This document shows, piece by piece, positions 16,694 through 54,837 of a stretch of 64,000 bases of DNA. The notes beneath the pieces are model-generated. The model did not search any database, was not told where the DNA came from, and saw nothing but the letters and a program-made list of their open reading frames with translations. Source of the stretch: Isurus oxyrinchus (Eukaryota); contig JANJGN010000121.1 of NCBI GenBank assembly GCA_026770705.1, positions 496,001-560,000 of the forward strand, read 5' to 3'. Position 1 is the stretch's first letter. The number at the start of each line of letters is the position of its first letter. Position numbers and translations under genes: made by a program.

Positions 16694-17068
16694 CAGAAAC
16701 ATGAAGCTGGGTTACAGGGTAATAGTTATGGCTCGGACCATTGTCAAATTCTATTCTGAAAAAATAAGGTCCTGCATCTTCCCGTCTGATGTTGTTTATA
16801 ATCAGGGAACAGTCGCCATCTTTCAGGTCTCCACACAGCCGGGTCCGATGGCGGAATCTTTGATCCCTGTGACTGTGACCCTCAGAGTGAAAGGCTATAG
16901 ACCGTTTCGGCTGTGGGTTCCCATCTATTCCTTTCAACCAGATTCCGACACGTGATCTCCCTACGAAATTTGATAAGTAACTGTAATGACATGGAATCTG
17001 TACACAGGAACCTTCCTGCGCTGTCACCTCTCGTGGAGTGTCACCTTTCCACTCTTGTGACAGTCCAA
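16694..17068 (-). CDS. G2 single V-set exon (375 nt)
   Basis: Canonical splice sites, open frame, YFFRIE. Confidence 0.92.
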
Positions 17069-17766
17069 CTGGGGAGAGAAATATCAATATTTAACTCTGG
17101 AAGGTTTGTAGATCCACGAGACTCGATATCCACCCCCTCCATCACTGGGGCACAGTGGCTGCAGTGTGGACCATCTACAGGACACACAAGGAACTCCCCA
17201 AGGTTTCACAACGGATGGAAGAGAATCCTGGACACAGGAGTGGACAAGTTCATTCTACATTGGCTCATGGTCCTCAGGACCCTGTTTAGTGAAGCCAGTC
17301 TTCCACCCAACGGTGTCTACAAGATACACAGGGAAACTGTGTAAACATCTCATCTCTCTACACTGACTGGTTTGAGCTTCAGTTCAACTTTCAGTATTTT
17401 TAAATTTCCATATTGTGGTTGCTATGGTGAAACTGTGCAGGAAGTGTGAGGGCTGGACTCTCTGTCTATTCTCACTGCAGCTGTGACGTGGTCGTGGTGA
17501 TTCTCAGTAAAATGAAACCCTCTCATCTCCTCCATCCCCGAGGTTTAGGGAGTGAATTCCAGAGCTCAGGCCCCAGGCAGCTGAAGGCCCGGCCGCCAGT
17601 ATTGGAGTGATGGGAATCGGGGGATGGTCAAGAGGCCGTATTTGGAGTAACACAGAGATCTGGGACGTTGGTTGGGAGAGTTGCAGGAGGTTACGGAGAT
17701 AGAGATAAGAATGATCTTTTACAAAGACTGTTAAACATAAATCTTCCAAGCTGACGATGATATTAC

Positions 17767-17806
17767 CTTGGAGAAGTGACAGGAGGAAGTAAGATTTCCC
17801 GATCAT
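17767..17806 (-). CDS. G2 leader exon CDS, MIGKSYFLLSLLQ
   Basis: ATG, phase-1 donor gtaat. Confidence 0.87.
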
Positions 17807-18256
17807 TGTCCACTCTCAGATATTTCATCCATTTCTCACTCTCAAGCTGTGAAAGAGAAAGGAGTTAATGAGACCTCACCTCTTGTCCGACAGCACTCAA
17901 GAGATCAGAACTGCTTTGAGACAATGTCTTCACAGACTAATTTGATTCTCTGTGGGATGATAGGTGCTCTGCAGAGAGTTACAAGGCTTTAAGAAAGAAG
18001 AACAATGAAGGATTTGCATTCCTATAGCACCGTTCACCACCTCAGCGCATTCCAAAGCTCATGTCCCTGCTCTTCCCTCATCCCCTGAGCTAGAAAGATG
18101 TTCTGTACAACAGACTTGAGCCTCACATCCAGATCTCAATAATCAGTAGGAATCTTTCAAAGGCATCAATCATTGGAATCTGTCTTTATAAAGTCACAAC
18201 ATCAACAAAGGACGGTGTTGGTGGTGGAAGTGAATTCCAATCGTTCCGTTACTTAC

Positions 18257-18341
18257 CCAGGACCTGTCCGACTGCTTGCCTGGGGAGGAACTGCCCACAC
18301 GCTCTGCTTGGGCTGAATGACCTCTTCCTGTGCTGCTCCCT
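18257..18341 (-). other. G2 85-nt upstream exon; PU.1 motif at 18384-18396
   Basis: Paralog of 10436-10520. Confidence 0.7.
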
Positions 18342-18870: not shown

Positions 18871-18948
18871 TGCTGATTTGCAAGACAGGACAATGGATTA
18901 GGAGCCCTCAGAACTCCCCCCGTGATTTCCAATCATTCTGTTACTTAC

Positions 18949-19033: not shown

Positions 19034-19189
19034 CTGTGTGTTTAATTAGAAAGGGTGGATGTGTCTCTGTGAGTCAAAATGAGGATGTGCTTGGTACCAA
19101 GTGAGAAAGCAGCTCTTTGCCTCGCACAGTTAGAAAACTGTTAACCCTTTGCGTGCCAAGAATGTGGATGAAGGGCTATCGACTGTTCA

Positions 19190-21340
19190 CATGCAACAAG
19201 CTCGAGGGACTGAATGGGCCTCCTCCTGTTCCTGAGTAACAGGCTCGAGGGGCTGAACGGTCCTCCTCCTGTTCCTGTGTAACAGGCTTGAGAGGGCTGA
19301 ATGGGTCTCCTCCTGTTCCTGTGTTATAGGCTCAAGGGACTGAATGGGTCTCCTTTTTCTGTGCAACAGGCTCAGGTGGGCTGAATGGCCTCCTTCTCTC
19401 ACTGTGTACCAGGCTCATGGGGCTGAGTGGGCCTCCTCCTGTTCCTGTGTAAAAGGCTAAAGGGGCTGAATTGGCCTTCCCCAGTTCCTGTGTACCAGGC
19501 TCGAGTACATTAGGAGCATCATTGGGAGCAGCATTTCACTTGCACTTCCCTCAATTTAATCTACTGCATTCACTGCTCCCAATGTGGTCTCCTCTACATG
19601 GGACAGACCAAACACAGACTGGGTGATCGCTCTGATGAACACCTTCGGTCTGTCCACAAGCATGACCCAGACCTCCCTGTCGCTTGCCATTTTAACACCC
19701 CACCCTGCTCTCATGCCCACATGTCTGTCCTTGGCCTGCTGCATTGTTCCAGTGAAGCCCAACGCAAACTGGAGGAACAGCACCTCATCTTCCGACCTTC
19801 CCGACTGAATATTGAGTTCAACAATTTCAGATCATGAACTCTCTCCTCCATCCCCACCCCCTTTCCAATCTCCCTTTTTCCAATAATTGATCATTTTTAA
19901 TATTTATTTTATTTATATATTTTTCTTTTCCCACCTATTTCCATTATTTTTAAATGTTTTACATTTGTTGTTGTATCTCTACCTTTTAGCCTATTTCAAT
20001 CCTTTCCCCCACCCCACCCCCACTAGGACTATCTGTCTCTTGCTCGTCCTGCTTTCTACCCTTAATGTCCCCATTAGCACATTCCTCAGATAATATCACC
20101 ACCGTCAACACCCCTTTGTCCTTTTGTCTATCACATCTTTGGCAACCTCTTCTTTACCTCCACCTATCACTGGCCCACAATCCAGCTCTACCTGCCCCAC
20201 CCCCTCTACCAGCTAAAACGTCACCTCATTTCTCGATTTACCTAGTTCAGATGAAGAGTCATACAGACCCAAAACTTCAAGTTGTTCCTCTCCACAGATC
20301 CCGTCAGACCTGCTGAGTTTTTCCAGCTATTTTTGTTTTTGTTCCCGTTCATGTGGAACAGGCTTGAGTGGCTGAATGGAGCCCCTAATGTTCCTCTGTA
20401 ACAAGCTTGTGGAGGCTGAATGGGCCTCCTGTACCTGTGTAACAGGCTCAAGGGGACAGAATGGGCCTCCTCCTCTTCCTGTGTAACAGGCTCGAGGGGG
20501 CTGAATGGGCCTCCTCCTGTTCCTGTGTAACAGGCTCGAGGGGACAGAATGGGCCTCCTCTTGATCCTGTAAAACAGGCACGAGGGACTGCATAGGTTTC
20601 CTATTCTTGTGTAAGAGGGTTGAGAGACTGAATGTGCTCTTCCTGTTCCTGGGTAACAGGCTCAGGTGACTGAATGGCCTCCTCCTGTTCCTGTGTTACA
20701 GGCTCTATGGGGCTGAATAGGACTCCTCCTTTTCCTGTGTAACAGGCTCGAGGGGCTGAGAGGCTCTCCTGTCCCTGTGGAAGGGTGTTGAGGGACTGAA
20801 TGTCCTCTTCCTGTTCCTGTGTAATAGGCTCATGAGGCTGATGGGCCTTCTCCTGTCCTCATGTAACAGGATTGAGTGGCTGAATGGGCCTCCTCCTGTT
20901 CCTGTGCAACAGGCTCGAGGGGCTGAATGGGCCTCCTCCTGTTCCTGTGTAACAGGCTCGAGGGGCTGAATGGGCCTCCTCCTGTTCCTGGGTAACAGGC
21001 TTGAGGGGGCTGAATGGGGCCTCCTCCTGTTCCTGTGTAACAGGCTTGAGCTGCTGAATGTCCTCCTCTCATTAAAAATAAATACTGCAGATGCTGTAAA
21101 TCTAAATAAAATCAGAAAATGCTGCATTAACTCAGCAGGTCTGGCAGCAGCTGTGGAGAGAGAAACAGAGTTTTTTCTTTGAGACTCTGAAGAAGGGTCA
21201 TACGGATTCGAAATGTTAATTCTGTTTATCTCTGCACAGATGCTGCCAGAACTACTCAGTCTCCAGCATTTCTGTTTTTGTTTCAGGTGCTCTCTTGTTC
21301 CTGAGTAGCAGGCTCGAGGGGGCTGAATGGCCTCCTCCTG
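19190..21340. repeat. ~43-bp tandem array (caggctcgaggggctgaatgggcctcctcctgttcctgtgtaa), interrupted
   Basis: Unit matches the CR1-like LINE 3' tail seen at ~1930-1975. Confidence 0.85.
19505..20345 (+). mobile_element. Penelope-like element fragment (GIY-YIG endonuclease plus 3' region)
   Basis: LIYCIHCSQCGLLYMGQTKHRLGDR..EH...PVACHFN...RKLEEQHLIFR; followed by a gatgaagagtcat...gacctgctgag tail that also occurs solo at ~16090-16220, 21080-21285, 31325-31460 and 60770-60865. Confidence 0.8.
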
Positions 21341-22399: not shown

Positions 22400-22516
22400 T
22401 TATAAATTCCCATAAACAGAATCCTTGGCAAAATCACAGTTTGCGTAAAGATCATCATCTGTATCAGGATTGACTCCGCGGTTAGGTTTCATTTCCAGAA
22501 CCTTTTCATCTTTCTT
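22400..22516 (-). CDS. G3 terminal cytoplasmic exon KKDEKVLEMKPNRGVNPDTDDDLYANCDFAKDSVYGNL*
   Basis: tttctattacag acceptor, phase 0, two Tyr motifs, TAA stop; AATAAA candidate at 21623-21628. Not in the ORF track. Confidence 0.82.
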   Translation of the reverse strand, partial: KKDEKVLEMKPNRGVNPDTDDDLYANCDFAKDSVYGNL

Positions 22517-22614
22517 CTGTAATAGAAACAGAAATGATCAGAGTGACAATCAGAGTGATCAGTGTTTAGTATTATTGATCCAAATCGAAAATTCCACCCA
22601 CAATAGATACATTA

Positions 22615-24580
22615 ATTATTGATACTGAACAGGGTTTGATTATTGATTCTGAACAGTGTTTGATTATTGATTGTGAACAGTGTTTGATTATTGATACTGA
22701 ACGGGGTTTGATTACTGATTCTGAACGGGGTTTGATTATTGATACTGAACGGAGTTTGATTATTGATTCTGAACGGGGTTTGATTATTGATTCTGAACGA
22801 GGTTTGAATATTGACACTGAATGGGGTTTGATTATTGATCCTGAACAGGGTTTGATTATTGATCCTGAAAGGGGTTTGATTATTGATACAGAACAGTGTT
22901 TGATTATTGATACTGAACAGGGTTTGATTATTGATTCTGAACAGTGTTTGATTATTGATACTGAACGGGGTTTGATTATTGATTCTGAACAGGGTTTGAT
23001 TATTGATTCTGAATGGGGTTTGATTATTGATACTGAACGGGGTTTGATTATGGATTCTGAATGGGGTTTGATTATTGATTCTGAATGGGGTTTGATTATT
23101 GATCCTGAACAGGGTTTGATTATTGATTCTGAAAGGGGTTTGATTATTGATTCTGAAAGGGGTTTGATTATGGATTCTGAACGGGGTTTGATTATTGATC
23201 CTGAACAGGGTTTGATTATTGATCCTGAAAGGGGTTTGATTATGGATTCTGAAAGGGGTTTGATTATGGATTCTGAACGGGGTTTGATTATTGATACTGA
23301 ACGGGGTTTGATTATTGATTCTGAAAGGGGTTTGATTATTGATACTGAACGGGGTTTGATTATTGATTCTGAACGGCGTTTGATTATTGATACTGAACGG
23401 GGTTTGATTATTGATTCTGAATGGCGTTTGATTATTGATACTGAACGGGGTTTGATTATTGACATTGAACGGGGTTTGATTATTGATTCTAAATGGTGTT
23501 TGATTATTGATTCTAAACGTTGTTTGATTATTGAACCTGAATGGAGTTTGATTATTGATTCTGAACTGGGGTTGATTATTGATACTTAACGGGGTTTGAT
23601 TATTGACATTGAACGGGGTTTGATTATTGATTCTAAATGGTGTTTGATTATTGATTCTAAACGGTGTTTGATTATTGAATCTGAATGGAGTTTGATTATT
23701 GATACTGAACAGTGTTTGATTATTGATTCTGAACAGTGTTTGATTACTGATTCTGAAAGGGGGTTGATTATTGATACTGAACGGTGTTTGATTATTGATT
23801 CCGAACGGGGTTTGATTATTAATTCTGAACGGGGTTTGATTATTGATACTGAATGGTGTTTGATTATTGATTCTGAATGGGGTTTGATTATTGATTCTAA
23901 ACGGTGTTTGATTATTGAACCTGAACGGAGTTTGATTATTGATACTGAACAGGGTTTGATTATTGATTCTGAAAGGGGGTTGATTATTGATACTGAACGG
24001 GGTTTGATTATTGATTCTGAACGGGGTTTGATTATAGATACTGAATGGTGTTTGATTATTGATTCTGAATGGGGTTTGATTATTGATACTGAACGGGGTT
24101 TGTTTATTAATTCTGAACGGGGTTTGATTATTGATTCTGAACGGGTTTTGATTATTGATACTGAACGGGGTTTGATTATTGATTCTAAACGATGTTTGAT
24201 TATTGAACCTGAACGGAGTTTGATTATTGATTCTGAACAGTGTTTGATTATTGATTCTGAAAGGGGGTTGATTTTTGATACTGAACGGGGTTTGATTATT
24301 AATTCTGAATGGGGTTTGATTATTGATACTGAATGATGTTTGATTATTGATTCTGAACGGGGTTTGATTATTGATACTGAATGGGTTTTGATTATTGATT
24401 CTGAACGGGGTTTGATTATTGATTCTGAACGGGGTTTGAGTATTGATTCTGAACGGGGTTTGATTATTGATACTGAACGGGGTTTGATTATTGATACTGA
24501 ACGGGGTGTGATTATTGATTCTGAACGGGGTTTGATTATTGATACTGATCGGGGTTTGATTATTGATTCTGAACGGTGTT
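22615..24580. repeat. 24-bp minisatellite (ttgattattgattctgaacggggt), roughly 80 copies, in the last intron of G3
   Basis: Directly visible. Confidence 0.97.
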
Positions 24581-24709
24581 GGGTGTGAGTTTGGTTGGGT
24601 TTGGGAGTGACTGTATAAAACATTGCAGATACAGGACTGGAGCAGCCATATCAATAACCAGGGTACTGGAGCAGCTGAGAGGCTGGGGATCCTGTGGTGT
24701 GTGACTCAC

Positions 24710-24814
24710 CTGATTCCTCAAAGCCCAACCACGCTCACAGTTTTCATAAACAGGACCTCGATGTTCATCAGCACGATGGTTCGATTTGATTCCTGCTTTC
24801 ACCTCGCCTCTCTT
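24710..24814 (-). CDS. G3 cytoplasmic exon KRGEVKAGIKSNHRADEHRGPVYENCERGWALRNQ (105 nt, phase 0-0)
   Basis: ctctattacag acceptor, CAG|gtgagt donor, YEN motif, paralogous to the terminal exon. Confidence 0.78.
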
Positions 24815-25325
24815 CTGTAATAGAGATGGAAATGGACAGAGTGACAATCAACATGATGTGTATTCGGTGTTGGGTTTGATTACTGGGGAGAGAGTTCCAG
24901 ATTTCCACTCCCCTTTGTGTGAAGAAGTGCTTCCTGACATCACCCCTGAATGGCCTGGCTCCAATCTGAAGTTCCAGCCCCCTTGTTCTGGACTCCACCC
25001 GACCCCCACCACCCACCCCCACCCGAGGGAATAGCTTCTCTCTATCGACCCTATCGAGTGTTTAATCAGTTTGAACCCCTCAATTAGATCCCTCCTTAAT
25101 CTTCTAGACCCGAGGGAATATAATCGTAGACTGTGTGTAACCTGTCTGCATAATTTAACCAGAAAGATGTTCTGTACAACAAACCTGAGCTTCACACCCA
25201 GATCTCAATAATCAGTAGAAATCTTTCAAAGGCATCAATCATTGGAATCTGTCTTTATAAAGTCACAACATCAACAAAGGATGGTGTTGGTGGTGGAAAT
25301 GAATTCCAATCGTTCCGTTACTTAC

Positions 25326-25410
25326 CCAGGACCTGTCCGACTGCTCGCCTGAGGAGGAACTGCCCACACGCTCTGCTTGGGCTGAATGACCTCTTCCTGT
25401 GCTGCTCCCT
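25326..25410 (-). CDS. G3 juxtamembrane exon (85 nt, phase 2-0), (K)GSSTGRGHSAQAERVGSSSGEQSDRSW
   Basis: ctaat..acacag acceptor, gtaagt donor. Bridges the phase-2 end of the TM exon to the phase-0 cytoplasmic exon with no stop. Confidence 0.68.
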
Positions 25411-25699
25411 CTGTGTATTTAATTAGAAAGGGTGGATGTGTCACTGTGAGTCAAATCAGGAATTGGGGAACAATTGTGAAAACCCTTTCACTGAAATGTA
25501 GGGCCTTAGTGTTGTGTTGTAAGCAAACTGTTAACCCTTTGTGTCCTGACTCTGTGACGTGATTCCTGTGTAAAGCTGAGCAGTCGTTGAGCGACTTTCA
25601 ATTCACTGCTCAGTCCAGATGTTGAGGTGGATCTTCTGAAGGAGCAGATGTTGCTCAGCACTCCTAAAAAATGTCAGATACTGAACATTGTGTAAGAGG

Positions 25700-25910
25700 A
25701 TGAGAGAGAAAATGAGAAGGAGAGCATTAGTGGAGACTGGAGAGAGAGTGAATGAGAGAGAGAATGAGAAGGAGAGCATTAGTGGAGATAAGAGAGAGAG
25801 TGAATGAGAGAGAGAATGAGAAGGCGTGCATTAGTGGAGATTGGAGAGAGAGTGAATGAGAGAGAGAATGAGAAGGAGAGCATTAGTGGAGATAAGAGGG
25901 AGTGAATGAA
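25700..25910. repeat. GA-rich ~50-bp tandem repeat, about 4 copies
   Basis: gagagaatgagaaggagagcattagtggaga... units. Confidence 0.75.
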
Positions 25911-26218
25911 ACATGGAAAATGGAAAGAGATTGCATTCACTAACAAAAGAAAGGTTTTCATTTATATAGCACCTTTCACATCCTCAGGAGGTCACAATGT
26001 ATTTTATGGTCTGGGTCAACACTGCCAGTTACAGGACTGAGTTGTGAAACAGTGAAAGGTGGATGAGATGTTAAACAGTAGGTGAACATCAAAACTCTTC
26101 AGGGGCTGTGAAGGGTTTTGGATGGTAAAAGGTGCTATTGAAATGCAAGTTCTTTCTATAAGGAGAGAAGGTTGAAGAAAAAATGTTTGAAATCAACCAA
26201 TTAAACCTTCGCACTTAC

Positions 26219-26315
26219 TTTCTCACACACTTGAAAATGAAGAATCCACTCAGTCCAACATTCAAACAGATTCCAGCTCCAAGCAATCCTGCTTTCCATT
26301 CATTGGAATCTCGCC
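26219..26315 (-). CDS. G3 transmembrane exon (97 nt, phase 1-2), (R)RDSNEWKAGLLGAGICLNVGLSGFFIFKCVR
   Basis: ttttacag/gtaagt; 20-aa uncharged Gly-rich segment followed by basic residues, similar in style to CD33-type TM exons. Confidence 0.82.
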
Positions 26316-26499
26316 CTGTAAAATCAGCCAATGAATGACTCCGGTACAGTTTGAGAATGGTTCCCTATGTACATGTAGTAATTCTGAACTTGTGAAGTGA
26401 TATTTTCTATGCATGAAAGGTCTATACAAATAACATATATCTATGTAATATTTATTGATAATATCCATGTACATGCAGGTTTCTATAAGGAGGATTCAC

Positions 26500-27540: not shown

Positions 27541-27580
27541 GAGCTAATAAAAACAGAATGTTCAATTCTGTGTAACTCAC

Positions 27581-27862
27581 GTTCCACAGTGATGGTTATG
27601 AACCCCTCCACTGCTCCATGTTCATTCTCTGCCACACACTGATAGTCTCCAGTGTCCCTGGATGTAACGTGAGGAATCACCAACCACAGCTCATTGTTGG
27701 AACTTGTTCTGTTCATTGGGACATTAAGATGTCGCCACGTCAGGTTAGAAGCTGGGAAGCTCTCGACAGAGCAGATTATCACTGCAGAATTCCCCTCAAT
27801 TATATTGATCGATGAAGCGTTAATCATATCAAGAGAAGTAATTGATAGGTTCCGTGGTGCAT
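27581..27862 (-). CDS. G3 third C2 exon (282 nt, phase 1-1)
   Basis: (Y)APRNLSI...IICSVESFPASNLTW...DTGDYQCVAENEHG...TVE; tttag/gtgagt. Confidence 0.9.
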
Positions 27863-28745
27863 CTAAATACAAATAAAGGTTTCATTGTGAGCAAACACAG
27901 TGCACAGCAAGACTCCATGATACATCTCTCTCTATTTGGTGTCTATGTGCATTTCAAGGTTCTTTCCTGTTTTAAGTTCCTATGTCAACTTTTATAATGG
28001 TCACTGCTGGTGTTTTTCTTTTTGTACATTCATGGGAAGTGGCTGTATCTATCTAGACCAGCATTTATTACCCATCCCTAATTGCCCTTGAGGAGGTGGT
28101 GGTGAGTTTTTCACCCCCACAGAATTCCCAGCCTCTGACCGGCTCCTGTAGCCACAGTATTTATGGCCGGTCCAGTTAGTTGTTTGGTTAACATCCCCCA
28201 GGATGTTGATTGTGGGGGATTCAGTGATAGGAAACTCACTGAACATCAAGGGGAGATGGTTAGATTCTCTCTTGTTGGAGATGATCACTGCCTGGTGCTT
28301 GTGATGCATTAATTGTCATTTCTCAGCCCAAGCTGAGTGTTATTCAGCTCTTGCTGCGTGTGGATATGTAAACTGTCACGCTGTAATTACAGCCTTCCAC
28401 CAGAGGAGACACTGTCGGGCTAGGAGAAAAGAAAATGTCTTTCACATCATCAGGATGTTCACAGGGATTTGACAGTGGAGGAATTGCTTTAGAATAATGG
28501 GGTATTGAGTGATAAACCTACAATTCTCTGTGCAGGGGGCTGCTCGTCCAATACAGGGTCTTGTTCAGCTGATGTCGTCAGTGTTTTAGAGCAGAATCTG
28601 GAGCAACACTCCAGTGCAGCACAGGGAGAACAGACAACTCACACATGTCTGTGTGTGTGTGAGCAAGCACACGTGTGATTCTGTGTATGTTTCCTTCTGT
28701 GTGTGTGCATGCAGGTGTACACACCTGTGCACATGTGGGATTGCA

Positions 28746-28927
28746 NNNNNNNNNNNNNNNNNNNNNNNNNNNNNNNNNNNNNNNNNNNNNNNNNNNNNNN
28801 NNNNNNNNNNNNNNNNNNNNNNNNNNNNNNNNNNNNNNNNNNNNNNNNNNNNNNNNNNNNNNNNNNNNNNNNNNNNNNNNNNNNNNNNNNNNNNNNNNNN
28901 NNNNNNNNNNNNNNNNNNNNNNNNNNN
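28746..28927. other. Assembly gap (N run)
   Basis: Ns; begins directly after the GT donor of the 28930-29211 exon. Confidence 1.
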
Positions 28928-28929
28928 AC

Positions 28930-29211
28930 ATTCCACAGTGTTGGTTCTGAATCCCTCCACTGCTCCATGTTCATTCTCTGCCACACACTGATAGTCTCCA
29001 GTGTCCCTGGATGTAACGTGAGGAATCACCAACCACAGCTCATTGTTGGAACTTGTTCTGTTCATTGGGACATTAAGATGTCGCCACGTCAGGTTAGAAG
29101 CTGGGAAGCTCTTGACAGAGCAGATTATCACTGCAGAATTCCCCTCAATTATATTGATCGATGAAGCATTAATCACATCAAGAGAAGTAATTGAGAGATT
29201 CTGTGGTGCAT
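28930..29211 (-). CDS. G3 second C2 exon (282 nt, phase 1-1)
   Basis: (D)APQNLSI...YQCVAENEHG...TVE; ttttag acceptor, GT donor at the gap edge. Confidence 0.85.
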
Positions 29212-29339
29212 CTAAAAACAAATAAACATCAATTAAGTTACACTGACTGTGAAGCACTTTGAAAGACACTGAGAATGTGAAAGGTGTGATATCAATATAG
29301 GTTCTTTCACCACAAAGCCCATAATCCAGCCAGACACCT

Positions 29340-30035
29340 CAGTTCAGTACTGAGGGTGTGCTGCACTGTGGGAGGGTCAGTACTGAGGGAGTGCTGCACT
29401 GTCAGAGAGTCAGTACTGAGGGAGTACTGCACCATCAGAGATTCAGTACTGAGGGAGTGCTGAACTGTCAGAGGGTCAGTACTGAGGGAGTGCTGTACTG
29501 TCGGTGGGTAAGTACTGAGGGAGTGCTGCACTGTCAGAGAGTCAGTAAGGAGGGAGTGCTGCACTGTCAGAGGTTCAGTACATAGGGACTGCTGCACTGT
29601 CTGATGGTCAGTACAGAGGGGTTGTTGCACTGTCGGAGGGTCAGAAATGAGGATGTGCTGCACTCTCAGAAGGTCAGTACTGAGGGGGTGCTGCACTGTC
29701 GAAGAGTCATTACTGAGGGGGTGCTGCACTGTGGGAGGGTCAGTACTGAGGGAGCACTGCACTGTTGAAGGGTCAGTACTGAGTGAGTGCTGCACTGTCG
29801 AAGGGTCAGTACTGAGGGAGTGCTGCACTGTTAGAGGGTCAGTACAGAGGGAGTGCTGCACTGTCAGAGGGTCAGTACTGAGGGAGCACTGCACTGTCAA
29901 AGGGTCAGTACTGAGGGAGTGCTGCACTGTCAAAGGGTCAGTACTGAGGGAGTGCTGCACTGTCAGAGGATCAGTACTGAGGGAGTGCTGCAGTGTTGGA
30001 GAGTCAGTATTCAAGGACTGCTGCAGTGTCAGAGG
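29340..30035. repeat. 33-bp tandem array, about 21 units
   Basis: Visible; the equivalent introns of G2 and G4 carry only about one unit. Confidence 0.92.
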
Positions 30036-30154
30036 CGGATTTGTATCAGTTAAAGACTATTGATTTGTTGCTAAACACAATGCAGTTGTGGGATCTTGCA
30101 GTGTACAATGAAGAGCATTCTAGCTAATGTAGATGGAAGGGTGTCCGTTCTTAC

Positions 30155-30451
30155 CTTGCACAGTTAGTATGAGGGTCTGCTCCGATGAAACAGATGGATA
30201 TCTCACTCTGCAGCTGAGAGTGTGTCCGTGGTGTTTGAGTGATGGGATCAGGGTCAGAACAGAAGTATAGGTCAGAGTGACACCATGCTGAGTTACAGTG
30301 TTTGAGACTGATCCAGGTACGTCAGTGGGAGTGTCCCAGGTTAAGACAGGTGCTGCTGTTCCATTGCACGTTGTGTTGAAGGTGCAGCTTACATCCACAC
30401 GCTTTCCTGCAATAATTTCAGCAGGGAATATCGTGGGTTTATCTGTGAAAT
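30155..30451 (-). CDS. G3 first C2 exon (297 nt)
   Basis: Paralog of 15538-15834, intact splice sites. Confidence 0.92.
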
Positions 30452-30822: not shown

Positions 30823-31191
30823 CAGAAACATGAAGCTGGGTTACAGGGTAATAGTTATGGCTCGGACCATTGTCAAATTCTATTCTGAAAAAATAAGGTC
30901 CTGCATCTTCCCGTCTGATGTTGTTTATAATCAGGGAACAGTCGCCATCTTTCAGGTCTCCAGACAGCCGGGTCCGATGGTGGAACCGTGGTAACTCGTG
31001 ACTGTGATCCTTGGAGTGAAAGGCAATGGGAGCCCAGGGAATCTGTTTCTCATTATTAAACCAGACTCCACCTCGCGGTTGGTTTTCCAGACACGATGGA
31101 TAACTGTAATGACATGGAATCTGTACACACGAACCTTCCTGAGCTGTCACCTCTCGTGGAGTGTCACCTTTCCACTCTTGTGAGGGTTCAG
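30823..31191 (-). CDS. G3 second V-set exon (369 nt)
   Basis: Intact, YFFRIE, extra BC-loop Cys. Confidence 0.92.
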
Positions 31192-32848: not shown

Positions 32849-33217
32849 CAGAAACGTGAAGCTGGGTTACAGGGTAATAGTTATGTCTCGGACCATTGTC
32901 AAATTCTATTCTGAAAAAATAAGGTCCTGCATCTTCCCGTCTGATGTTGTTTATAATCAGGGAACAGTCGCCATCTTTCAGGTCTCCAGACAGCCGGGTC
33001 CGATGGTGGAACCGTGGTAACTCGTGACTGTGATCCTTGGAGTGAAAGGCAATGGGAGCCCAGGGAATCTGTTTCTCATTATTAAACCAGACTCCACCTC
33101 GTGGTTGGCTTTCCAAATGTGCTGGATAACTGTAATGACATGGAATCTGTACACACGAACCTTCCTGCGCTGTCACCTCTCGTGGAGTGTCACCTTTCCA
33201 CTCTTGTGACAGTCCAA
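32849..33217 (-). CDS. G3 first V-set exon (369 nt)
   Basis: Intact, YFFRIE. Confidence 0.92.
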
Positions 33218-36674: not shown

Positions 36675-36714
36675 CTTGGAGAAGTGACAGGAGGAAGTAA
36701 GATTTCCCGATCAT
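36675..36714 (-). CDS. G3 leader exon CDS, MIGKSYFLLSLLQ
   Basis: ATG, phase-1 gtaat donor. Confidence 0.87.
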
Positions 36715-43205: not shown

Positions 43206-43331
43206 AATGGCTCTGGCGAGTGACGGCTTGGATTCTGCACACAGGTGCCTGGTGTGAGGCTCAATAACATGCACCTTGTAATCAGAGAGAGGATGAGAGA
43301 GAGGGATAGAGATGAAGGGACAGAGACAGAG

Positions 43332-44089: not shown

Positions 44090-44224
44090 GAGAGACAGCA
44101 TGGTACTGAACCATTGCTGACTCCACAGGTACAAATCAGTGGGTAACTGGGCTGGGAATCTGGGACATGTGTTGTCTACACACTGAGATTGAAGCTTTGG
44201 AGTGAGTGTAAACAGTTCCTGTAC

Positions 44225-44306
44225 CTGGTGCTTCACAGAGAGTGGACTGGGGGTCAATGCAATGTCTCTGGTCCCTGAAACTCTCTCCTCCATCGCTGTC
44301 TTTCTC
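44225..44306 (-). CDS. Juxtamembrane exon J1 (82 nt, phase 2-0), RKTAMEERVSGTRDIALTPSPLSVKHQ
   Basis: ttgcag/gtacag; phases fit TM (phase 2) to terminal exon (phase 0). Confidence 0.65.
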
Positions 44307-45234
44307 CTGCAATAACACAATATCACACTGTGGTTATCATATAGCAGAGAGTCAGTGCAGCACAGACACAGAGCACACTGTAACCTTACACCAATGACTC
44401 GACTGTCTCTTTAAATCAGTTCTGCACAAAGCACAGAATTAAGAAGCTCGACACCATCCAGGACAAAGCAGCTCGATTGATCGACACCCCATCCCCCACA
44501 TTAAACATTCACTCCCTCCACCATGAACACACAGTGGCAGCAGTGTGTGTACCATCTACAAGATGCACTGCAGCAACTCAGCAAGGCTCCTTCAACAGCA
44601 CCTTCCAAACCCACGACCTCTACCATCTAGAAGGACAAGGGCAGCAGACACATGGGAACACCACCACCTGGAAGTTCCCCTCCAAGTCACTCACCATCCT
44701 GACTTGGAAATATATCACTTCACTGTCACTGGGTCAAAACCCTGGATCTCCCTCTCTAACAGCACTGTGGGTGTACCTACACCACATGGACTGCAGCGGG
44801 TCAAGAAGGCAGCTCACCACCACCTTCTCAAGGGGCAATTAGAGATGGGCAATTAATAGCGGCCTCACCAGTGACAGCCACATTCGATGAAAGAATTTAA
44901 AATCTCACAGCTCAGGAGGAAGCCACTCAGCCCATCGTGCCTGTGCTGGCCCTTTGAAAAAACTGACCAATTAGTCCCACTACCCAGACTGTTCAATCAT
45001 TCCTGATGGTTATAACCACCACTGTCGATGGACCCTCTGATTTACCATTCTGAATCGAGGCAGATCAACTTTCCTGCAACAACTTGCATTTATATGGCAC
45101 ACTTAATGTAATAAACTGTCCCAAATCTCTTCAGGGGATTTTTACCTACATATAAATCCATCTCTGAGACACATAATGAGCTATTAGGGACAGGTGACAA
45201 AAAGCTGATTTCACAAAGCCAGTTAATAAGGACC

Positions 45235-45386
45235 NNNNNNNNNNNNNNNNNNNNNNNNNNNNNNNNNNNNNNNNNNNNNNNNNNNNNNNNNNNNNNNNNN
45301 NNNNNNNNNNNNNNNNNNNNNNNNNNNNNNNNNNNNNNNNNNNNNNNNNNNNNNNNNNNNNNNNNNNNNNNNNNNNNNNNNNNNNN
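45235..45386. other. Assembly gap, probably a GA microsatellite
   Basis: Ns; the paralogous site at 42310-42440 is a (GA/CA)n tract. Confidence 0.95.
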
Positions 45387-45612
45387 GAGAGACAGAGTAC
45401 GAGAGAGAGAGACACTGAATCTCTGTCCCCAATGACTCAGCATCAAGTCGTCACTGGGGAAACATTTCATTCCAAACCACACCAACCACAGACCCATTCA
45501 GTCCCTTCCTCCCTCTCTCCCCCTCTCCCCCAGTGGGTTGTCTCATGTTCCCAAGAATCTTCATCCCTGCCACCACCCACACACCTCCTGACCCCCTCTC
45601 CCCGTTTCACAC

Positions 45613-45861
45613 TCAGTTTCGCTTGAATCTGATCTGTGCGTATTCCGTCTGCTCTTCCCTGTGGACAGACCCATCACCACTGGTCACCCTGAAGACTTGG
45701 GGATTGGTGTAGAGAAGCTCGTTGGGATTGTCAGGGTTCCCATGTCCAGCATCGCCTCCCACTGCACATTCAGAGAGACCCCGGGGAGCTGGGGTCTCCC
45801 CCTCACTAGTTGTGTCTCTGGTTGTGTTCCGGGGCTCAGTAATCAGCACGTTCTGTTTACC
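45613..45861 (-). CDS. Terminal cytoplasmic exon T2, ...ELLYTNP...EQTEYAQIRFKRN*
   Basis: Intact paralog of T1. Confidence 0.72.
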   Translation of the reverse strand, partial: GKQNVLITEPRNTTRDTTSEGETPAPRGLSECAVGGDAGHGNPDNPNELLYTNPQVFRVTSGDGSVHREEQTEYAQIRFKRN

Positions 45862-47309
45862 CTACAGAGAAATGGAAACAGAAGACATCCTCACATCATT
45901 TACTGGCACTGATAGGGTTAAATTATTGTGCAGCCTGGTTAGTGTCAGTCGTGGGTCAGTGGGTTTAAACCTCTCTCACATGTCTTATGAAAGAAAACAC
46001 CTATGGCAGTGCAGTGCTCCCTCAGTACTGACCCTTCGATAGTGCAGCACTTCCTCAATGCTGACCATCCAACAGTGCAGCACTCCCTCAGTACTGACCC
46101 TCCAACAGTGCAGCGCTCCCTCAGTACTGACCCTCCAACAGTGCAGCGCTCCCTCAGTACTGACCCTCCGACAGTACAGGTCTTCCTCAGTACTGACCCT
46201 CTGACAGTGCAGCACTCCCTCAGTACTGACCCTCTGACAGTGCAGCACTCCCTCAGTACTGACCCTCTGTCAGTCTCGCACTCCCTCGGTAATGGCTCTG
46301 GCGAGTGTCGGCTTGGATTCTGCACTCAAGTGCCTGGTGTGAGGCTCAATAACATGAATCTTGTAATCAGAGAGAGGATGAGAGAGAGAGAGAGAGATGA
46401 AGGGTCAGAGACAGAGCGTTATGAATCTATTAATGTATGTATTGTAATTGGAAATTGTCTTTTTAAACAGAGGTTTAGTCTGTGGGTGTGTGTGTGTGTG
46501 TTTTAATTGGAATAAAGCCAGCCGGTCTGGGTACTTTGATGTATAGTAGTTTTGAGATGTAAACAAAGAGGTAAAGAGGCATATTGCATTTTTAAAAGGA
46601 GGATTCAAAGCCTGGGAGTGAATTCTTAAACCAATCAATGTTTATATTACTAATAAAATTGATACTATGAAACGGGATTTATTGTTAGAAGAGATGGAGA
46701 TCAAAGGTCCTGATGATACAATGAGAATTTACTTACAAAGAGAAGCACTGGGTATAACTTGAGCAGTTTTGTGTGTGCAGAGCAGAGGCTTGTAACATCA
46801 AAGCAGCTGTAAGCCTACACCTGTCTGCAAAAGAACCAAAGTGAAAGGAACCTCATTTGGAATTTGTGAGGTGAAAATGCTTTGCTTGGAATCTGCTTAA
46901 AGTCTATGGGTTGTCTTAGAGGACGTTAGTTTGGGAATTTGTTAAAAAGTTATGATAGTACTAGATTGTAGCCATGTGCATATGATTAACTTGTGAAAAT
47001 TAATAAATGTCTCATGTAGTTTGATATAAACCCATCTCAAGAACTGATGGTGTTATTCCTGAATTTAGAGCTGCATCTCAAACATTCCACTGGGAAATAT
47101 AGGTTATGACACTTGTTTAAAGTTTCCCTCTGGGATTTTAAACAACAGCCTTTAGCAGTCGCTGTGTCATAACAGAGAGACAGCATGATACTGAACCATT
47201 GCTGACTCCACAGGTACAAATCAGTGGGTAACTGGGCAGGGAATCTGGGACACATGTTGTCTACACACTGAGATTGAAGCTTTGGAGTGAGTGTAAACAG
47301 CTCCTGTAC

Positions 47310-47391
47310 CTGGTGCTTCACAGAGAGTGGACTGGGAGTCAAGGCAATGTCACTGGTCCCTGAAACTCTCTCCTCCATCGCTGTCTTTCTC
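47310..47391 (-). CDS. Juxtamembrane exon J2 (82 nt)
   Basis: Intact paralog of J1. Confidence 0.62.
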
Positions 47392-48564
47392 CTGTAATAA
47401 CACAATATCACACTGTGGTTATCATATAGCAGAGAGTCAGTGTAGCACAGACACAGAGCCCACTGTAATCTTAGACCAACGACTGGGACTGTCTCTTTAA
47501 ATCAGTTCTATACAAAGCACAGAATCAAGAAGCTTGACACCATCCAGGACAAAGCAGCCCGATTGATCTACACCCCATCCACCACATTAAACATTCACTC
47601 CCTCCACAACGAACACACAGTGGAAGCAGTGTGTGTACCATCTACAAGATGCACTGCAGCAACTCAGCAAGGCTCCTTCAACAGCACCTTCCAAACCCAC
47701 GACCTCTACCATCTAGAAGGACAAGGGCAGCAGACACATGGGAACACCACCACCTGGAAGTTCCCCTCCAAGTCACTCACCATCCTGACTTGGAAATATA
47801 TCATCGTTCCTTCACTGTCGCTGGGTCAAAATCCTGGAACTCCCTCCCTAACAGCACTGTGGGTGTACCTACACCACATGGACTGCAGCGGGTCAAGAAG
47901 GCTGATCACCACCACCTTCTCAAGGGCAATTAGGGATGGGCATTAATGCTGGCATCACCAGTGACAGCCACATTCGATGTAAGAATTAAAAATCTCACAG
48001 CACAATGTATTTATTGGGATCCTCCTGCACACACGCCCTGTCGAAGGACCCTTTGTGGTTCCATTGTTAATCGAAGCAGATCAGACTTACTGCAACTACT
48101 TGCATTTATATAGCACCTTTAATGTAGCAAAATGTCCCAAGGCTCATCCGGGAATTGTTAGTCACATCTTCACCTGACTCTGAGGCACATGAGGAGATAT
48201 AAGGGACAGGAGACCAACAGCTGAGTCAACAAAGTCAGTTATTAACGGGCATCTTAAAGGAGGAGCTGGAGATAGAGAATGAGTGACAGACACAGAAAGA
48301 AAGACAAAGAGAGGGAGAGAGAGAACAAGAGAGCGAGAGAGAGAGAGAAAGAGACAGAGAGAGACAGTGAATCTCTATCCCCAGTGGCTCAGCATCCAGT
48401 CCTCTCTGGAGAAGCATTTCATTCCAAACCACACCAACCGCAGCCCAATCCCATCCCTTCCTCCCTCTCTCCCCCTCTCCCCCAGTGGGTTGTTTCCTGT
48501 TCCCAGGAATCTCAATCACTACCCCCAGCCCCACACCTCCTCACTCCCACTCCCCATTTCTCAT

Positions 48565-48813
48565 TCAGTTATGCTCGAACCTGATCTGTGCGTATTCCGT
48601 CTCCTCTTCCCTGTGGACAGACCCATCATCACTGGACATCCTCAATACTTGGGGATTGGCGTAGAGAAGGCCGTCGGGATTGTCGATGTGCCAATGTCCA
48701 GCATCGCCTCCCAATGCACCTTCAGAGAGACCCCGGGGAGCTGGGGTCTCCCCCTCGCTAGTTGTGTCTCTGGTTGTGTTCCGGGGCTCAGAAATCAGCA
48801 CGTTCTGTTTACC
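48565..48813 (-). CDS. Terminal cytoplasmic exon T3, ...GLLYANP...EETEYAQIRFEHN*
   Basis: Intact paralog of T1; no J exon upstream. Confidence 0.7.
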   Translation of the reverse strand, partial: GKQNVLISEPRNTTRDTTSEGETPAPRGLSEGALGGDAGHWHIDNPDGLLYANPQVLRMSSDDGSVHREEETEYAQIRFEHN

Positions 48814-48954
48814 CTACAGAGAAATGGAAACAGAAGACATCCTCACATTATTTACTGGCACTGATAGGGTTAAATTAATGAGCAGCCTCGTTAGTGTCAG
48901 TCTTGTCTCAGTGGGTTTAACCCTCTCTCTCATGTCATCTGAAAGAAACCACCT

Positions 48955-49730
48955 ATGGCAGTGCAATGCTCCCTCAGTACTAACCCCCCCGACTGTGCAG
49001 CACATCCTCAATAGTGACCCTCTGTCAGTCTCACACTCCCTCATTACTGACCCTCTGTCAGTCTTGCACTCCCTCTGTACAGTGCAGCACTTCCTTAGCA
49101 CTGACCCTCTGACAGTGCAGCACTTCCTTAGCACTGACCCTCTGACAGTGCAGCACTCACTCAGTACTGACCCTCCATCAGTGCAGCACTCCCTCAGTAC
49201 TGACCCTCTGACAGTGCAGCACTCCCTCACTACTGACCCTCCAACAGTGCAGCACTGCTTTAGCACTGACCCTCTGACAGTGCAGCACTCACTCAGTACT
49301 GACCCTCCAACAGAGCAGCACTCCCTTAGCCCTGACCCTCTGACAGTGCAGCACTCCCTCACTACTGACCCTCCAACAATGCAGCACTGCCTTAGCACTG
49401 ACCCTCTGACAGTGCAGCACTCACTCAGTACTGACCCTCCAACAGTGCAGCACTCCCTTAGCCCTGACCCTCTGACAGTGCAGCACTCCCTCAGTACTGA
49501 CCCTCCAACAGTGCAGCACTCCCTTTTCACTGACCCTCTGACAGTGCAGCACTCCCTCAGTACTGACCCTGCAACAGTGCAGCACTTCCTTAGCACTGAC
49601 CCTCTGATGGTGCAGCACTCCCACATTACTGACCCTCTGACAGTGCAGCACTCACTCAGTACTGACCCCTCCAACATTGCAGCATACCCTCTGCACTGAC
49701 CCTCTGACAGTGCAGCACTCCCTCAGTAAT
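48955..49730. repeat. 33-bp tandem array, about 23 units, joining the tail cluster to the G4 upstream region
   Basis: Visible units. Confidence 0.92.
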
Positions 49731-49950
49731 GATACCACAGATTGTCGACATGGACCATATGGCCAGAGACCTGTATTGGGAACTCTTATCGCTTGAGTTT
49801 CAGCCTCCGAGGTGAGGGGAAGGGGTCTAATCCCACAGAGCCAATGGAGAAGCTTCATGACTACAGCTGCCCAAATATGAGCTGACAGATCACACATGGT
49901 AAACGTTTTGCTGAGAGCACAAAACATCCTCAATCTTCTCACTGGTTACC

Positions 49951-50541: not shown

Positions 50542-50581
50542 ATGATCGGGAAATCTTACTTCCTCCTGTCACTTCTCCAAG
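50542..50581 (+). CDS. G4 leader exon CDS, MIGKSYFLLSLLQ
   Basis: Acceptor at 50501, ATG, G|gtaat. Confidence 0.87.
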
Positions 50582-53500
50582 GTAATATCATTGTCAGCTC
50601 AGACAGATTTATGGCTAATAGTCTTTGTAAAAGATCATTCTTATTGAGTGTGATTGGGAACTGATTCAGCAGTGAGCCAGCGTACAAACTCACACCAAGT
50701 CCCATTCACCCATCACCCCTGTGCTCACTGATATACACTGACTCCCTGTCTGACAGCAGAATTGGAGGAGAATAGAGATCTCAGAGGGTTGTAAGAACTG
50801 GAGGAGGTTACAGAGATAGGGAGGGGAGAGGGTGGATTGCGGGTAAGAAATCAATGATGAGAATTTGAAATTTGAGTCATTGCTGGACTGGGAGCCAGTG
50901 TAGGTCAGCCAGTGACAGGGGAGCGATCGGCTGAATAGAGAAATAGGGATAAAAACTGAGGAATGAGGTCTATCCTGATGTTAGGACTCGGATAACAATG
51001 CCCTGAAATTTTGTGTCTATTGCTGATTTTGTCAGAATTTCCCATGAAGACAACACAGCAGCTCCTAGAATAGACAGGCTGTTCAGTGTCACACTTCCTG
51101 TCCATTCTCACCTTGCTAGATACTTCAATAAGGGAGCAAGATAACTGAAAGAGAGAAGGAAGGCAAAGCTGTCTGTGTGTAAAACTGTCAAATATTCTGA
51201 GTTATCATGATTGATTCTGATCTGCTGCAGAGTTTAAATTTCACAGAATCTGAGCACTTTGCAGCTCAGAGAGAGACCATTGACTCACTGCCTGAAAGGG
51301 CGGTGGAAGCAGATTCAACAGGAACTTTCAGAAGGGGAACTGGATAAATACTTGAAGGAGACATTTTGCAGGGCTGTGGGGGAGAGAGCAGAGGTTAGAG
51401 TGGGACTAATTGGACAGAACTTTCAAAGGTCCAGCACAGGCTCGATGGGCCAAATGACTTCCTTCTCTTCCAGATCATTCTACAATCTGATAAATTAAGC
51501 CCCACATCAATAACTCTTAAGGCTCCTGCTGCAGGGATGGATCTTTGAGAAGGACAGAGAATAAGAGGTTTCTGGTATCATTTTCATATTGTACTGAATC
51601 TTGCTGCCAGAATGTTTGGCCACCGCTGATCACCATGTTGTGTTTTTATAATGATATAAAGGCACCAGCCACTGATACGGAATTGGGTAAATACATTGTG
51701 GGTTCAGTTATTTTGAATAGGGACATGAGAACAGATGTACAAGGATAGAAAGCTGGGAGACACCTGCAGCCAAACTGTGTGAGCTGTGTTCTGCTCACAG
51801 ACCAAAGTGAAACTTGGACTGGATGGTGTTATCATCCCAGCTGATGTTACTACTGGGCAAGTCAGATCCCAGGGTGGAACTCAGCTTGATAGGTCCTAAC
51901 TTATATTTTTTATTTAGGAATGTGGAGTGTGGCTACTGAACAGAGTCACAGGAGTCATCTGATGAACTTCTAACAAAAGAATAAAACATTTATTAAACTA
52001 GGAAAGACAAACTATATGACATTACTCCTTCACCCAGATCTATACATTTACAGTTTCATAAGGATAACGCAATTACAATAACTAACTTATACTCTCATGT
52101 TCACACTAAGTACACAGTCGATGTAAAACAGTAGACGACCTGGGGTCAGGGACACCACATTCTGAAACCAAGTGACAGAACCCACTTGGAACAAATGCTC
52201 CGGGTCCCTCCTCAACTGACTCTAGACGCTTGTTACACCGTGAGGCAACTGGTCTAACGAAACTGCTTCTTTCACATGAGAGTTTCCAATCTCTACTCAC
52301 CAAGAACTCACTTTGGAATCTTCTCCAACATGACACTTTCACACAGACACCTTCCACAAGGGTCCACTTTCACTATTTCAAACTCTCCTTCCCATGTTCC
52401 TGCCCCCTGGATCGCCACGTGCATTCAGCCTTCCTTCCACGCCCTGTCTCTCCAATGCTCAGCCGTGTCAATGGAACACCATGGCTTCACATGGCCGTAG
52501 TAATGAGTCACCAACCTGTGGTGTCTCCTAGGATCTTCTGGCTTCTCATAAGCCTATTTTGCTTTGGGTCTGTGTCCTTTTGCCCATTCTCTTTTAGCTT
52601 GGATCCCTCCTCTGAACCTCAACCTTAACTTGACTTAACAGGACCTTGTCCAGATTCCTGATCTTCCTTGGAGTAGAAGGTTTTCTTGGCCCTTTCTCCT
52701 GTTCCACTCGATGGTTTTGGCTTCTTCTTTACTTTGGGACTGACTATCTGTCCCGCTCCTTTGCTGCTTCTCCTGGCAACTCCTTTCAACAGAACTGAAA
52801 GTACATTTCTGTTTTTCTCGGTCTCTGTGAGTCCTTCCCTCTGGATCACTGTTGCTAGGCAACAGCACAGTTTCTTACACCTTGTATTTGTTTTGACTTC
52901 CCTTCAACAGTCACCAAACCTCATTAGATTGCTGGCTTCTATAAAAATGAAACTAAAAGTCAAGTTTCCCCCTTTCTTAACACACAAATACAGAAATCAA
53001 ACTAAACTTGAACTTAAAGATAGACCTTATGCCTAACACACACAAATACACATAGAACTTACTTAACCTATCCCCAGTTCCTAAAAATCACATGACACAC
53101 TTCCCCTCGAGTGATGTCATGCTGCTGTCCCTGAAAGGCATATTACAACAGTGTTATCACTTGGCAGGTGATGTGTGCCAGGCAGACCAAGTCCATGAGA
53201 GAAAGGTGGTCACACGATCATAATGATTTTGCAATTTGTATTTATTATGAGATGTGTGCACTGAATTCAGAAGCAATAATTACTCTAGGAACTTTAGAGA
53301 TTTGAAAATTAAATTAAAATACTTGCTCTCAGAATAAATGATATCATGCATGTACATGAAACTACAATTACCATTTTAATAATAATTCTTAAAATTCCGA
53401 AATAACCTGACTCCCAGTTACACTCCCTTTAAGGCAACGGTCCAAAAATAGAGTTTATATTTAAAACAAACTCAGCAAGTTAACACAATATAAAAGCAAT

Positions 53501-54471
53501 ACCCTGCACAGAGGAATTCCAAGTGGCTTTTCCCCAACTTCAGTTCCGTTGGATAGCAGGCTTGTGCACAAATGCTAGTGGTTTCATTAAGACTATATCA
53601 CACACTCGTGTTAGATCTTACATGGCATTCTGACACATAGCCTTTCATTGTCCCTGATAGATATATATTTCTCTCTTTGTAACATGAGTATTCTATTGTT
53701 CCAAATGTTTTTGAAACTGTATCTTCCTCATAACAAATTCTTTTGTGGTGCCCATATTGCCAGGAGCCTTTGAGAAAAATAAGCACATTCCTTAGTCTTG
53801 CTTATCTGGCTAGTTGTAAACAAACTAAGATTCCTTTGAAATCCAACAACCCCTTCATTGAAATAAAAATGCAAATTCTCTTCATACCTTCCATGCTAAG
53901 CAGCATCCATGTTTACTCAATAGCATGTCAAGCACCTAGCTCCTTTTGATCATTTTAAACTTCCAATCTAATTAACTCCAAATGTACTTAAATCACATGC
54001 AGACCCATCATGCGTACCCCCATAAACCTACTTCACAATATACTATAAAATATTATGAAAATTATTATACTTTCATCACAATAGGAACCACTGCCTTAGA
54101 CACTGAGGATCTAGGACAGCTAGGCCAATTCATGATTCATGATGGTGATAATGGGGGAATTCTGAAGGCTCCTAATCCATTGTCCTAGTTTGTAAATCAG
54201 CAGTGAACTCACTTCAATTAGTGTGTCTTGTAGACACTGTGTTGGGTGGAAGACTGGATTCACTAAACAGGTTCCTGAGGGCCACGAGCCAATGTAGAAT
54301 GAACTTGTCCACTCCTGTATCCAGGATTCTCTTCAATGTGTTGTGAAACATTGGGGCATTCATTGTGAGTCCAGACTGCAGCCACTGTGCCCCAGTGATG
54401 GAGGGGGTGGATTTTGAGTCTAGTGGATTGACAAAACATTCAGGGTTAAATATTGATATTTCTCCCCCTAG

Positions 54472-54837
54472 TTGGACTACCACAAGTGTGGAAAGGTGAC
54501 ACTCCACGAGAGGTGACAGCGCAGGAAGGTTCGTGTGTACAGATTCCGTGTCATTACAGCTACCCATCATATTTAGTACCGAGATCACCTGTTGGAATCT
54601 GGTATATGAGACGGAATTGGGAAACATGGTCTATAGCCTTTCACTCCAAGGATCACAGTCGCGAGTTACCACGGTTCCACCATCGGACCCGGCTTTCTGG
54701 AGACCTGAAAGATGGTGACTGTTCCCTGATTATAAACAACATCAGACGGGAAGATGCAGGATATTATTTATTCAGAACAGATTTTGACAGCAGGAATAGA
54801 TACAACGACCGTCCTGAAACCCAGCTTCATGTTTCTG
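54472..54837 (+). CDS. G4 first V-set exon (366 nt)
   Basis: cctag/gtaagt; open; YYLFRTDF keeps the Arg. Confidence 0.9.

Follow-up and report, generated by a model that had tools for sequence, protein, structure and literature searches.

Four Siglec-like receptor genes occupy the window analysed here, a stretch of 64,000 nucleotides from the shark Isurus oxyrinchus (contig JANJGN010000121.1, positions 496,001 to 560,000 of the forward strand). Their seven V-set exons (V1 to V7) belong to a large family in which old loop modules sit within near-identical frameworks, and a fairly probable cause, in our view, is gene conversion that makes the frameworks uniform, combined with selection that maintains the loops. 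Directly observed are the size of the family, its loop classes, recombination, synonymous divergence (dS) that equals nonsynonymous divergence (dN) in the BC loop, and a rule of domain position: divergent basic loops are found in distal V domains, and a conserved arginine-bearing class in proximal or single V domains.

The seven exons were located by six-frame and BLAST scans. Loops were assigned by alignment to sialoadhesin and Siglec-5, together with the predicted strands of a shark homologue (P0012). As a mean of the seven exons, nucleotide identity reaches 98.2% in codons 61-86, 94.2% in codons 1-30 and 68.5% in the BC loop, and the adjoining introns are 89.9% identical over 44 nt upstream and 95.7% over 56 nt downstream. 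Diversity (pi) is 0.21-0.24 at codons 31-42 and 0.20 at codons 97-102, with 0.01-0.05 in the framework, and third codon positions peak together with first and second positions. Three variable regions emerge: BC extended by half of strand C, CC', and the FG hairpin together with the first part of strand G. Strand F and the C'' region vary as well, and CC' ranges from 9 to 20 residues in length.

An earlier interpretation made from the letters of this DNA (the sequence-only reading) had described hypervariability confined to the BC and CC' loops. Its seven V exons, the framework motifs and four loops that it quoted, and the exon lengths of 366-378 nt are all present, and its assignment of the loops to BC and CC' agrees with the sialoadhesin alignment and the predicted strands. 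The span to which it assigned them, 16694-54837, encloses only four of the seven exons, the first quoted loop lying at 4287-4664. The variation lies on the binding face but is not confined to BC and CC': identity in F/FG/G falls to 56% in the worst pair of the seven, and codons 97-102 form a second diversity peak. The claim that introns are more alike than the loops holds beside the exon and within an intron class; it fails further out, where the introns of 85 exons fall into seven upstream and three downstream classes with less than 80% identity between them.

The family was sampled in 180 stretches of 10 kb, of which 40 were tiled around the window, 60 were placed on framework-pattern matches and 80 on class A matches; the last set skews the sample to class A and its upstream partner exons. 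Together with the window, these stretches contain 296 V loci, 294 of them full length and 257 intact, giving 204 distinct coding sequences. The first analyses (class-pair dN/dS, intron classes, cysteine tallies) were restricted to the first 100 stretches and their 85 distinct exons, seven exons having been left out. By our own CC'-based rule, in which class A takes in a few rarer CC' variants, the 204 exons form eight recurring classes: A (152), B (17), D (17), E (7), G (5), B2 (4), C (1) and F (1). The loops are not freely hypervariable, with 152 of the exons in a single class. Combining BC, CC', C'' and FG yields 139 distinct surfaces, mainly point variants, and the 134 exons of the 11-residue A type share a mean of 88% amino-acid identity over BC and CC'. 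The four loops quoted as radically different are real, but the description does not extend to all seven window exons, as four of these share one loop class.

The classes differ in chemistry and in position. Mean net charge is +2.5 to +6.5 in the non-A loops, most of which are rich in tryptophan and tyrosine, against -0.3 in class A. The essential arginine is present in 150 of 152 class A exons against 22 of 52 non-A exons. Among 72 intact non-A exons, 71 are followed by another V exon and none comes after one, the exception being V3. Outside the lamniforms, CC' loops of the PWAP type were found in six genera (Heptranchias, Pristiophorus, Scyliorhinus, Mustelus, Chiloscyllium and the ray Pristis); Carcharodon and Cetorhinus have loops of the MRR type; the cross-species protein database behind these comparisons keeps only proteins less than 90% alike, and the TSS rule used there is loose. 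Within a class, exon lengths step by 9 nt in CC' (366 and 375 nt in D; 378, 387 and 396 nt in E). A 9-nt period exceeds that of codon shuffles in the modal loops of B (p=0.0006), E (0 of 5000 shuffles), F (p=0.017) and B2 (p=0.021), and is not significant against the same shuffles in modal D (p=0.08), G (p=0.33) and C (p=0.12). In-frame slippage of a 9-nt unit is thus a likely source of the CC' length changes in classes B, D and E.

Exchange between copies is evident in several ways. In a PHI-type recombination test, none of 1000 permutations gave a value as low as that observed. Both FG types are found with A, D and E loops. One and the same 78-nt D-E haplotype recurs in 85 of the 204 exons and spans three classes, including 13 of 17 B and 2 of 17 D exons; relative to class A, the 36 nt of the modal BC loop carry 13 differences in B and 16 in D. 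Non-A classes are about 3% apart in the downstream intron and 3-18% apart in the upstream one. Lamniform frameworks of different loop classes lie 0.05-0.075 apart, compared with 0.13-0.28 in five other sharks. We postulate that conversion would homogenise frameworks across copies, that tracts overwriting a loop would be selected against, and that tracts carrying a whole loop would create new combinations. Local divergence peaks under conversion are a published signature of selection, with neutral escape by divergence as the published alternative (PMC3924837). In Siglec-9, the BC, CC' and FG/G regions respond to or contact the ligand (PMC10877568).

Selection was assessed with our own GY94 code and one tree per segment, leaving CC' out of the codon alignments because it cannot be aligned between classes; its boundaries are our own. 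The tests are uncorrected, concern short segments and share data. Between classes, BC has a dS of 0.48-0.56 and a dN of 0.49-0.53, while dS is 0.44-0.57 in FG/G, 0.10-0.11 in the framework and 0.05-0.06 in D-E (all from 85 exons); BC dS is about five times that of the framework. The sequence-only reading proposed classical positive selection, with dN/dS (omega) above 1 rapidly diversifying BC and CC', which we regard as unlikely. In its favour, class A BC has an omega of 1.86 (1.13-3.42; p=0.033), with M2a p=0.009 at sites 33 and 40; non-A BC has 0.92 extra alleles per site at first, 0.58 at second and 0.42 at third codon positions, against 0.38 in the upstream intron (p=0.011); and several non-A class pairs show BC pN of 0.24-0.36 against pS of 0.05-0.17. 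However, class A BC is the only one of ten segments to exceed 1, and site 33 is a cysteine that tracks domain position. Joint comparisons of M2a with M1a on segment-specific trees are not significant (p=0.47 for 52 non-A exons, p=0.40 for 152 A exons), no class exceeds 1, and dS is raised as much as dN. The high identity among the 11-residue A exons and the presence of the loop classes in several species likewise speak against rapid diversification.

A tree-free count of alleles present in at least three of the 52 non-A exons gives 19 nonsynonymous to 4 synonymous in BC against 15:15 in the framework (Fisher p=0.021), and the nonsynonymous rate in non-A BC is about twice the upstream-intron rate (p=0.009), with third positions matching the intron. 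Taken together, these results indicate a modest surplus of amino-acid changes in BC rather than a strong dN/dS above 1. There is support for a germline repertoire whose members differ on the ligand face of Siglecs; diversifying selection with dN/dS above 1 is not shown. The sequence-only reading had taken loop dN/dS no higher than 1, with divergence explained only by conversion-tract boundaries, as grounds to reject its proposal. That is largely the pattern found, with dS as high as dN, yet selection is not refuted by it, because selection under gene conversion is expected to leave a local divergence peak (PMC3924837).

Several results weigh against conversion-homogenised frameworks with selected loops. 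Besides the joint tests above, omega in non-A BC is 0.92 (0.58-1.76), and its ratio of nonsynonymous to synonymous alleles is in line with what its own sites predict (p=0.26), so relaxed constraint would fit as well. Omega in strands A-B is 0.49 and 0.57, both below 1, and 0.49-0.94 over the frameworks, which are under weak purifying selection. A test of concerted evolution, in which frameworks should be closer within a species than to the same class in Isurus oxyrinchus, held in two of seven species, with one tie. Distant introns form non-alignable classes too, so divergence islands could arise without selection. Moreover, class C is broken in 14 of its 15 sampled copies, and at least one loop class is therefore decaying. 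Its single intact copy is V3, against 256 intact of 279 copies in the other classes; class C is an amplified pseudogene lineage of predicted activating type whose one intact member lies in this window. Where an anchor is seen, class C exons (for example at loci L014, L036 and L046) are tied to the arginine type.

A rival scenario is that of neutral islands: a loop that had diverged or changed length would no longer pair, would evade conversion and would then drift under relaxed constraint. Omega is near 1 in BC and F/FG/G, conversion is known to stop as divergence and indels build up (PMC3924837), and both the non-alignable introns and the predominance of pseudogenes in class C agree with this scenario, which we nevertheless judge improbable. 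BC (36 nt) and FG (about 30 nt) are free of indels, have homogenised flanks and are swapped between classes, so exchange is not blocked there. The islands also coincide with ligand-face loops, CC' lengths stay in frame, and loop class tracks domain position almost perfectly. We prefer selection on the loops because the islands are short and exchangeable, have no indels in BC and FG, map to the binding face and correlate with domain position. The amplification of a few ancient paralogues by duplication alone, with framework identity due to purifying selection, would explain why 69 of 293 exons have a near-identical twin, but it is highly improbable: different classes share the same synonymous framework sites, omega in the framework is as high as 0.5-0.9, and recombination is significant.

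Building on conversion-homogenised frameworks with selected loops, we tentatively propose that mackerel sharks may hold a combinatorial germline repertoire of several hundred Siglec-like paired receptors, made from conversion-shuffled ancient loops and 9-nt slippage in basic loops with a tryptophan at every third residue. Distal domains may have left sialic acid for other polyanionic or microbial ligands while being stapled to a canonical sialic-acid-binding V domain. Within the main reading itself, distal domains are predicted to sense different, probably polyanionic, ligands and to signal through activating or tyrosine-motif tails.

The putative staple is a cysteine at position 33 in the BC loop. 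Of 135 V exons preceded by a V exon, 127 carry Cys33, compared with 10 of 78 preceded by a leader (81 exons with neither in view were excluded). In other species the corresponding counts are 31 of 41 against 4 of 99 domains (3 of 143 domains were dropped). Cys33 thus marks domain position, not ligand. It lies six residues past the strand-B cysteine, near the site that matches the partner cysteine of the first C2 exon; a V-V disulfide is therefore predicted, by which the BC cysteine would staple a V domain to the preceding one. A predicted model of the whole chain has a pTM of 0.43. In two four-V ray proteins (P0011 and P0015), the BC-cysteine domain alternates with domains that bear a cysteine in CC' instead.

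Siglecs are characterised by an intra-sheet B-E cysteine pair and an extra cysteine for a V-C2 bond. Among the 85 exons, Cys26 and Cys73 are present in all and Cys21 in 84, at positions that align to sialoadhesin. The partner cysteine for the V-C2 disulfide is found in the first C2 exon of genes 2 and 3 and is replaced by tryptophan in gene 4. The essential strand-F arginine (YXFR motif) is retained in six of the seven window exons. The V exon matches the Pfam V-set (1e-13) and Ig_CD22 (8e-9) profiles, the top 17 matches in a sequence search of the PDB are all Siglecs, with sialoadhesin first at 1e-13, and the best fold match of homologue P0012 is MAG. Judged by V-set domain, cysteine pattern, arginine and type I membrane layout, the window genes are Siglec-like in sequence; database names of the homologues are mixed (Siglec-10/12/13, MAG-like, CD22-like).

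Each gene follows the plan of a leader, one or two V exons, a C2 exon, further C2 exons in varying number, a transmembrane exon and a tail. The features of the window are as follows.
727..1095, minus strand: V1, proximal V exon of gene 1 (369 nt), with class A loops, the BC cysteine and the essential arginine.
4287..4664, minus strand: V2, distal V exon of gene 1 (378 nt), with a class B basic, tryptophan-rich CC' loop and the essential arginine replaced by threonine.
9946..9985, minus strand: leader exon of gene 1; the gene continues just beyond the left edge of the window with its C2, transmembrane and tyrosine-motif tail exons.
13257..13388, minus strand: transmembrane exon of gene 2, with an intramembrane arginine and a short tail, predicted to be of activating type.
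15060..15832, minus strand: C2 exons of gene 2, the first at 15536-15832 with the inter-domain cysteine, and the matched part of the second at 15060-15212.
16694..17068, minus strand: V3, sole V exon of gene 2 (375 nt), class C, with BC at 16941-16976 and CC' at 16899-16937.
17767..17806, minus strand: leader exon of gene 2.
22403..26316, minus strand: uncharged transmembrane exon of gene 3 (26218-26316) and its tyrosine-motif tail exons (about 24614-24814, and 22403-22519).
27579..30449, minus strand: C2 exons of gene 3 (30153-30449, 28931-29209 and 27579-27860), with an N stretch at 28746-28927.
30823..31191, minus strand: V4, proximal V exon of gene 3 (369 nt), class A with the BC cysteine.
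32849..33217, minus strand: V5, distal V exon of gene 3 (369 nt), class A without the BC cysteine.
36675..36714, minus strand: leader exon of gene 3.
50542..50581, plus strand: leader exon of gene 4.
54472..54837, plus strand: V6, distal V exon of gene 4 (366 nt), class D, with BC at 54564-54599, CC' at 54603-54632 and a divergent FG/G at 54786-54818.
56568..56933, plus strand: V7, proximal V exon of gene 4 (366 nt), class A with a short CC', a stop codon in BC and an AT donor.
57664..59684, plus strand: C2 exons of gene 4 (57664-57960, and 58284-58435, frameshifted) and its arginine-bearing transmembrane exon (59553-59684).

Between genes 3 and 4, three tandem tyrosine-motif tail exons with linker exons lie on the minus strand at 42629-48813, with the upstream anchor and ectodomain absent; gene 4 starts on the opposite strand at 50542. 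This block resembles the remaining end of a gene disrupted by an inversion or deletion, and one of its tail copies has a stop right after the last motif. Intronic and intergenic minisatellite arrays (2057-3025, 10794-11818, 19183-21068, 22612-24580, 29341-30035, 46000-46300, 48952-49732 and 60419-60789) could promote unequal exchange.

Genes 2 and 4 combine an arginine-bearing anchor with a short tail, and genes 1 and 3 an uncharged anchor with a tyrosine-motif tail. Across 49 transmembrane exons examined, A, B/F, D/G/B2 and E heads each occur on both kinds of anchor, which constitutes a paired-receptor layout. From their motifs, the two kinds of tail are predicted to give activating and inhibitory signals, respectively; we take the tyrosine motifs to be immunoreceptor tyrosine-based inhibitory and switch motifs (ITIM/ITSM), and the arginine anchor presumably couples to an adaptor.

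AG/GT splice sites flank 284 of the 294 V exons. Contigs from public runs, which we presume to be RNA, join the end of V6 to the start of V7 as well as V to V, V to C2, C2 to the arginine anchor (GT..AG) and leader to V. They support the gene model of the family, not the expression of these four genes, as they come from coded organisms and may represent paralogues. The class B loop at 4504-4560 has almost no cover in four public runs, which is uninformative on expression. In contigs of three runs, the first C2 exon is joined directly to the arginine anchor (57956-59546), and the second C2 exon, frameshifted in gene 4, is skipped. Rearranging antigen-receptor V segments can be dismissed, as the V exons have splice sites, sit in leader-V-C2-transmembrane genes and are joined by spliced V-V junctions. 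Orphan V cassettes serving as donors for rearrangement or conversion are excluded by the membership of the exons in complete genes, and mutually exclusive splicing of tandem V exons is not favoured, given that V-V junctions occur. Stalk length is highly variable, with 13 tandem second-C2 exons in one gene (contig C121, 581033-595307, loci L023-L024) and one to seven in others. Elsewhere (contig C52, 1871343-1886632, loci L085-L086), seven consecutive V exons stand 2.3-3.8 kb apart with no C2 exons between them, which suggests a seven-V receptor.

A protein search of the genome itself returned 1066 candidates, of which 150 were scored. Exact patterns, each with 0 control matches, count at least 646 V frameworks, at least 311 leaders and at least 169 basic distal-type loops in the assembly, together with at least 217 arginine-type and at least 308 uncharged transmembrane exons (at least 525 in all); the arginine codon is present in 98 of the 100 arginine-type anchors listed. 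These counts may be inflated by haplotype duplicates, because the twins of the 69 exons mentioned above are near-identical (at most 2 mismatches over about 1.2 kb). A few more divergent members on a 20-Mb contig (C34, 15.13-15.27 Mb, loci L099 and L100) may offer a synteny anchor, and contig C25 (L098) holds one V fragment. The 114 homologues found come without exception from sharks and rays, with Carcharodon and Cetorhinus closest. The literature searched, including that on shark and fish Siglecs and with most subscription journals outside its scope, yielded no description of the family. The excerpted text of a whale shark paper, supplements excluded, mentions Siglecs once, without this family; a Siglec-family list in supplementary file 9 of PMC8455134 may bear on novelty. 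The loop classes, divergence islands and 9-nt steps are new to the present analysis.

Hundreds of shark copies compare with 14 functional Siglecs in humans (PMC13324755). The closest parallel in organisation is offered by the CD33-related paired Siglecs (Siglec-5/14 and Siglec-11/16), which likewise combine V-set and C2 domains in near-identical ectodomains with opposite tails, and which show concerted evolution by conversion, frequent null copies and loss of the arginine (PMC6288428, PMC13358205). In contrast, the shark family has hundreds of copies, common tandem V exons, discrete loop modules and three tail types. The likeness is not a claim of orthology, the shark V domain being nearest to sialoadhesin by sequence and to MAG by fold. 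Siglec-12 shares the tandem V pair, and human Siglec-XII is without the essential arginine (PMC6288428), whereas the shark family has chains of V exons, a BC-loop cysteine in non-first V domains and basic, tryptophan-rich CC' loops in distal ones.

Red and green opsins likewise show a local divergence peak at functionally important sites between homogenised flanks (PMC3924837), and RHD/RHCE are likened to them in the title of a reference. Unlike the opsins, the shark family has many copies and several peaks per exon, and the peaks are shuffled; its selected residues are putative. The family offers a case, in many copies, where selection works against gene conversion. A further lesson is that apparent hypervariability in such families can reflect old modules and not fast evolution. 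Finally, the role of CC' in Siglec-7 and Siglec-9, on which the sequence-only reading relied, is stated in PMC7165337: a swap of six CC' residues switches specificity. CC' is the most variable segment of the shark exons as well. The family amounts to a natural loop-swap experiment on a near-constant scaffold, in which rules of Siglec specificity become directly testable. In comparison with Siglec-7/9, the shark CC' loop spans 9-20 residues, and on the shark side the comparison draws on gene sequences.

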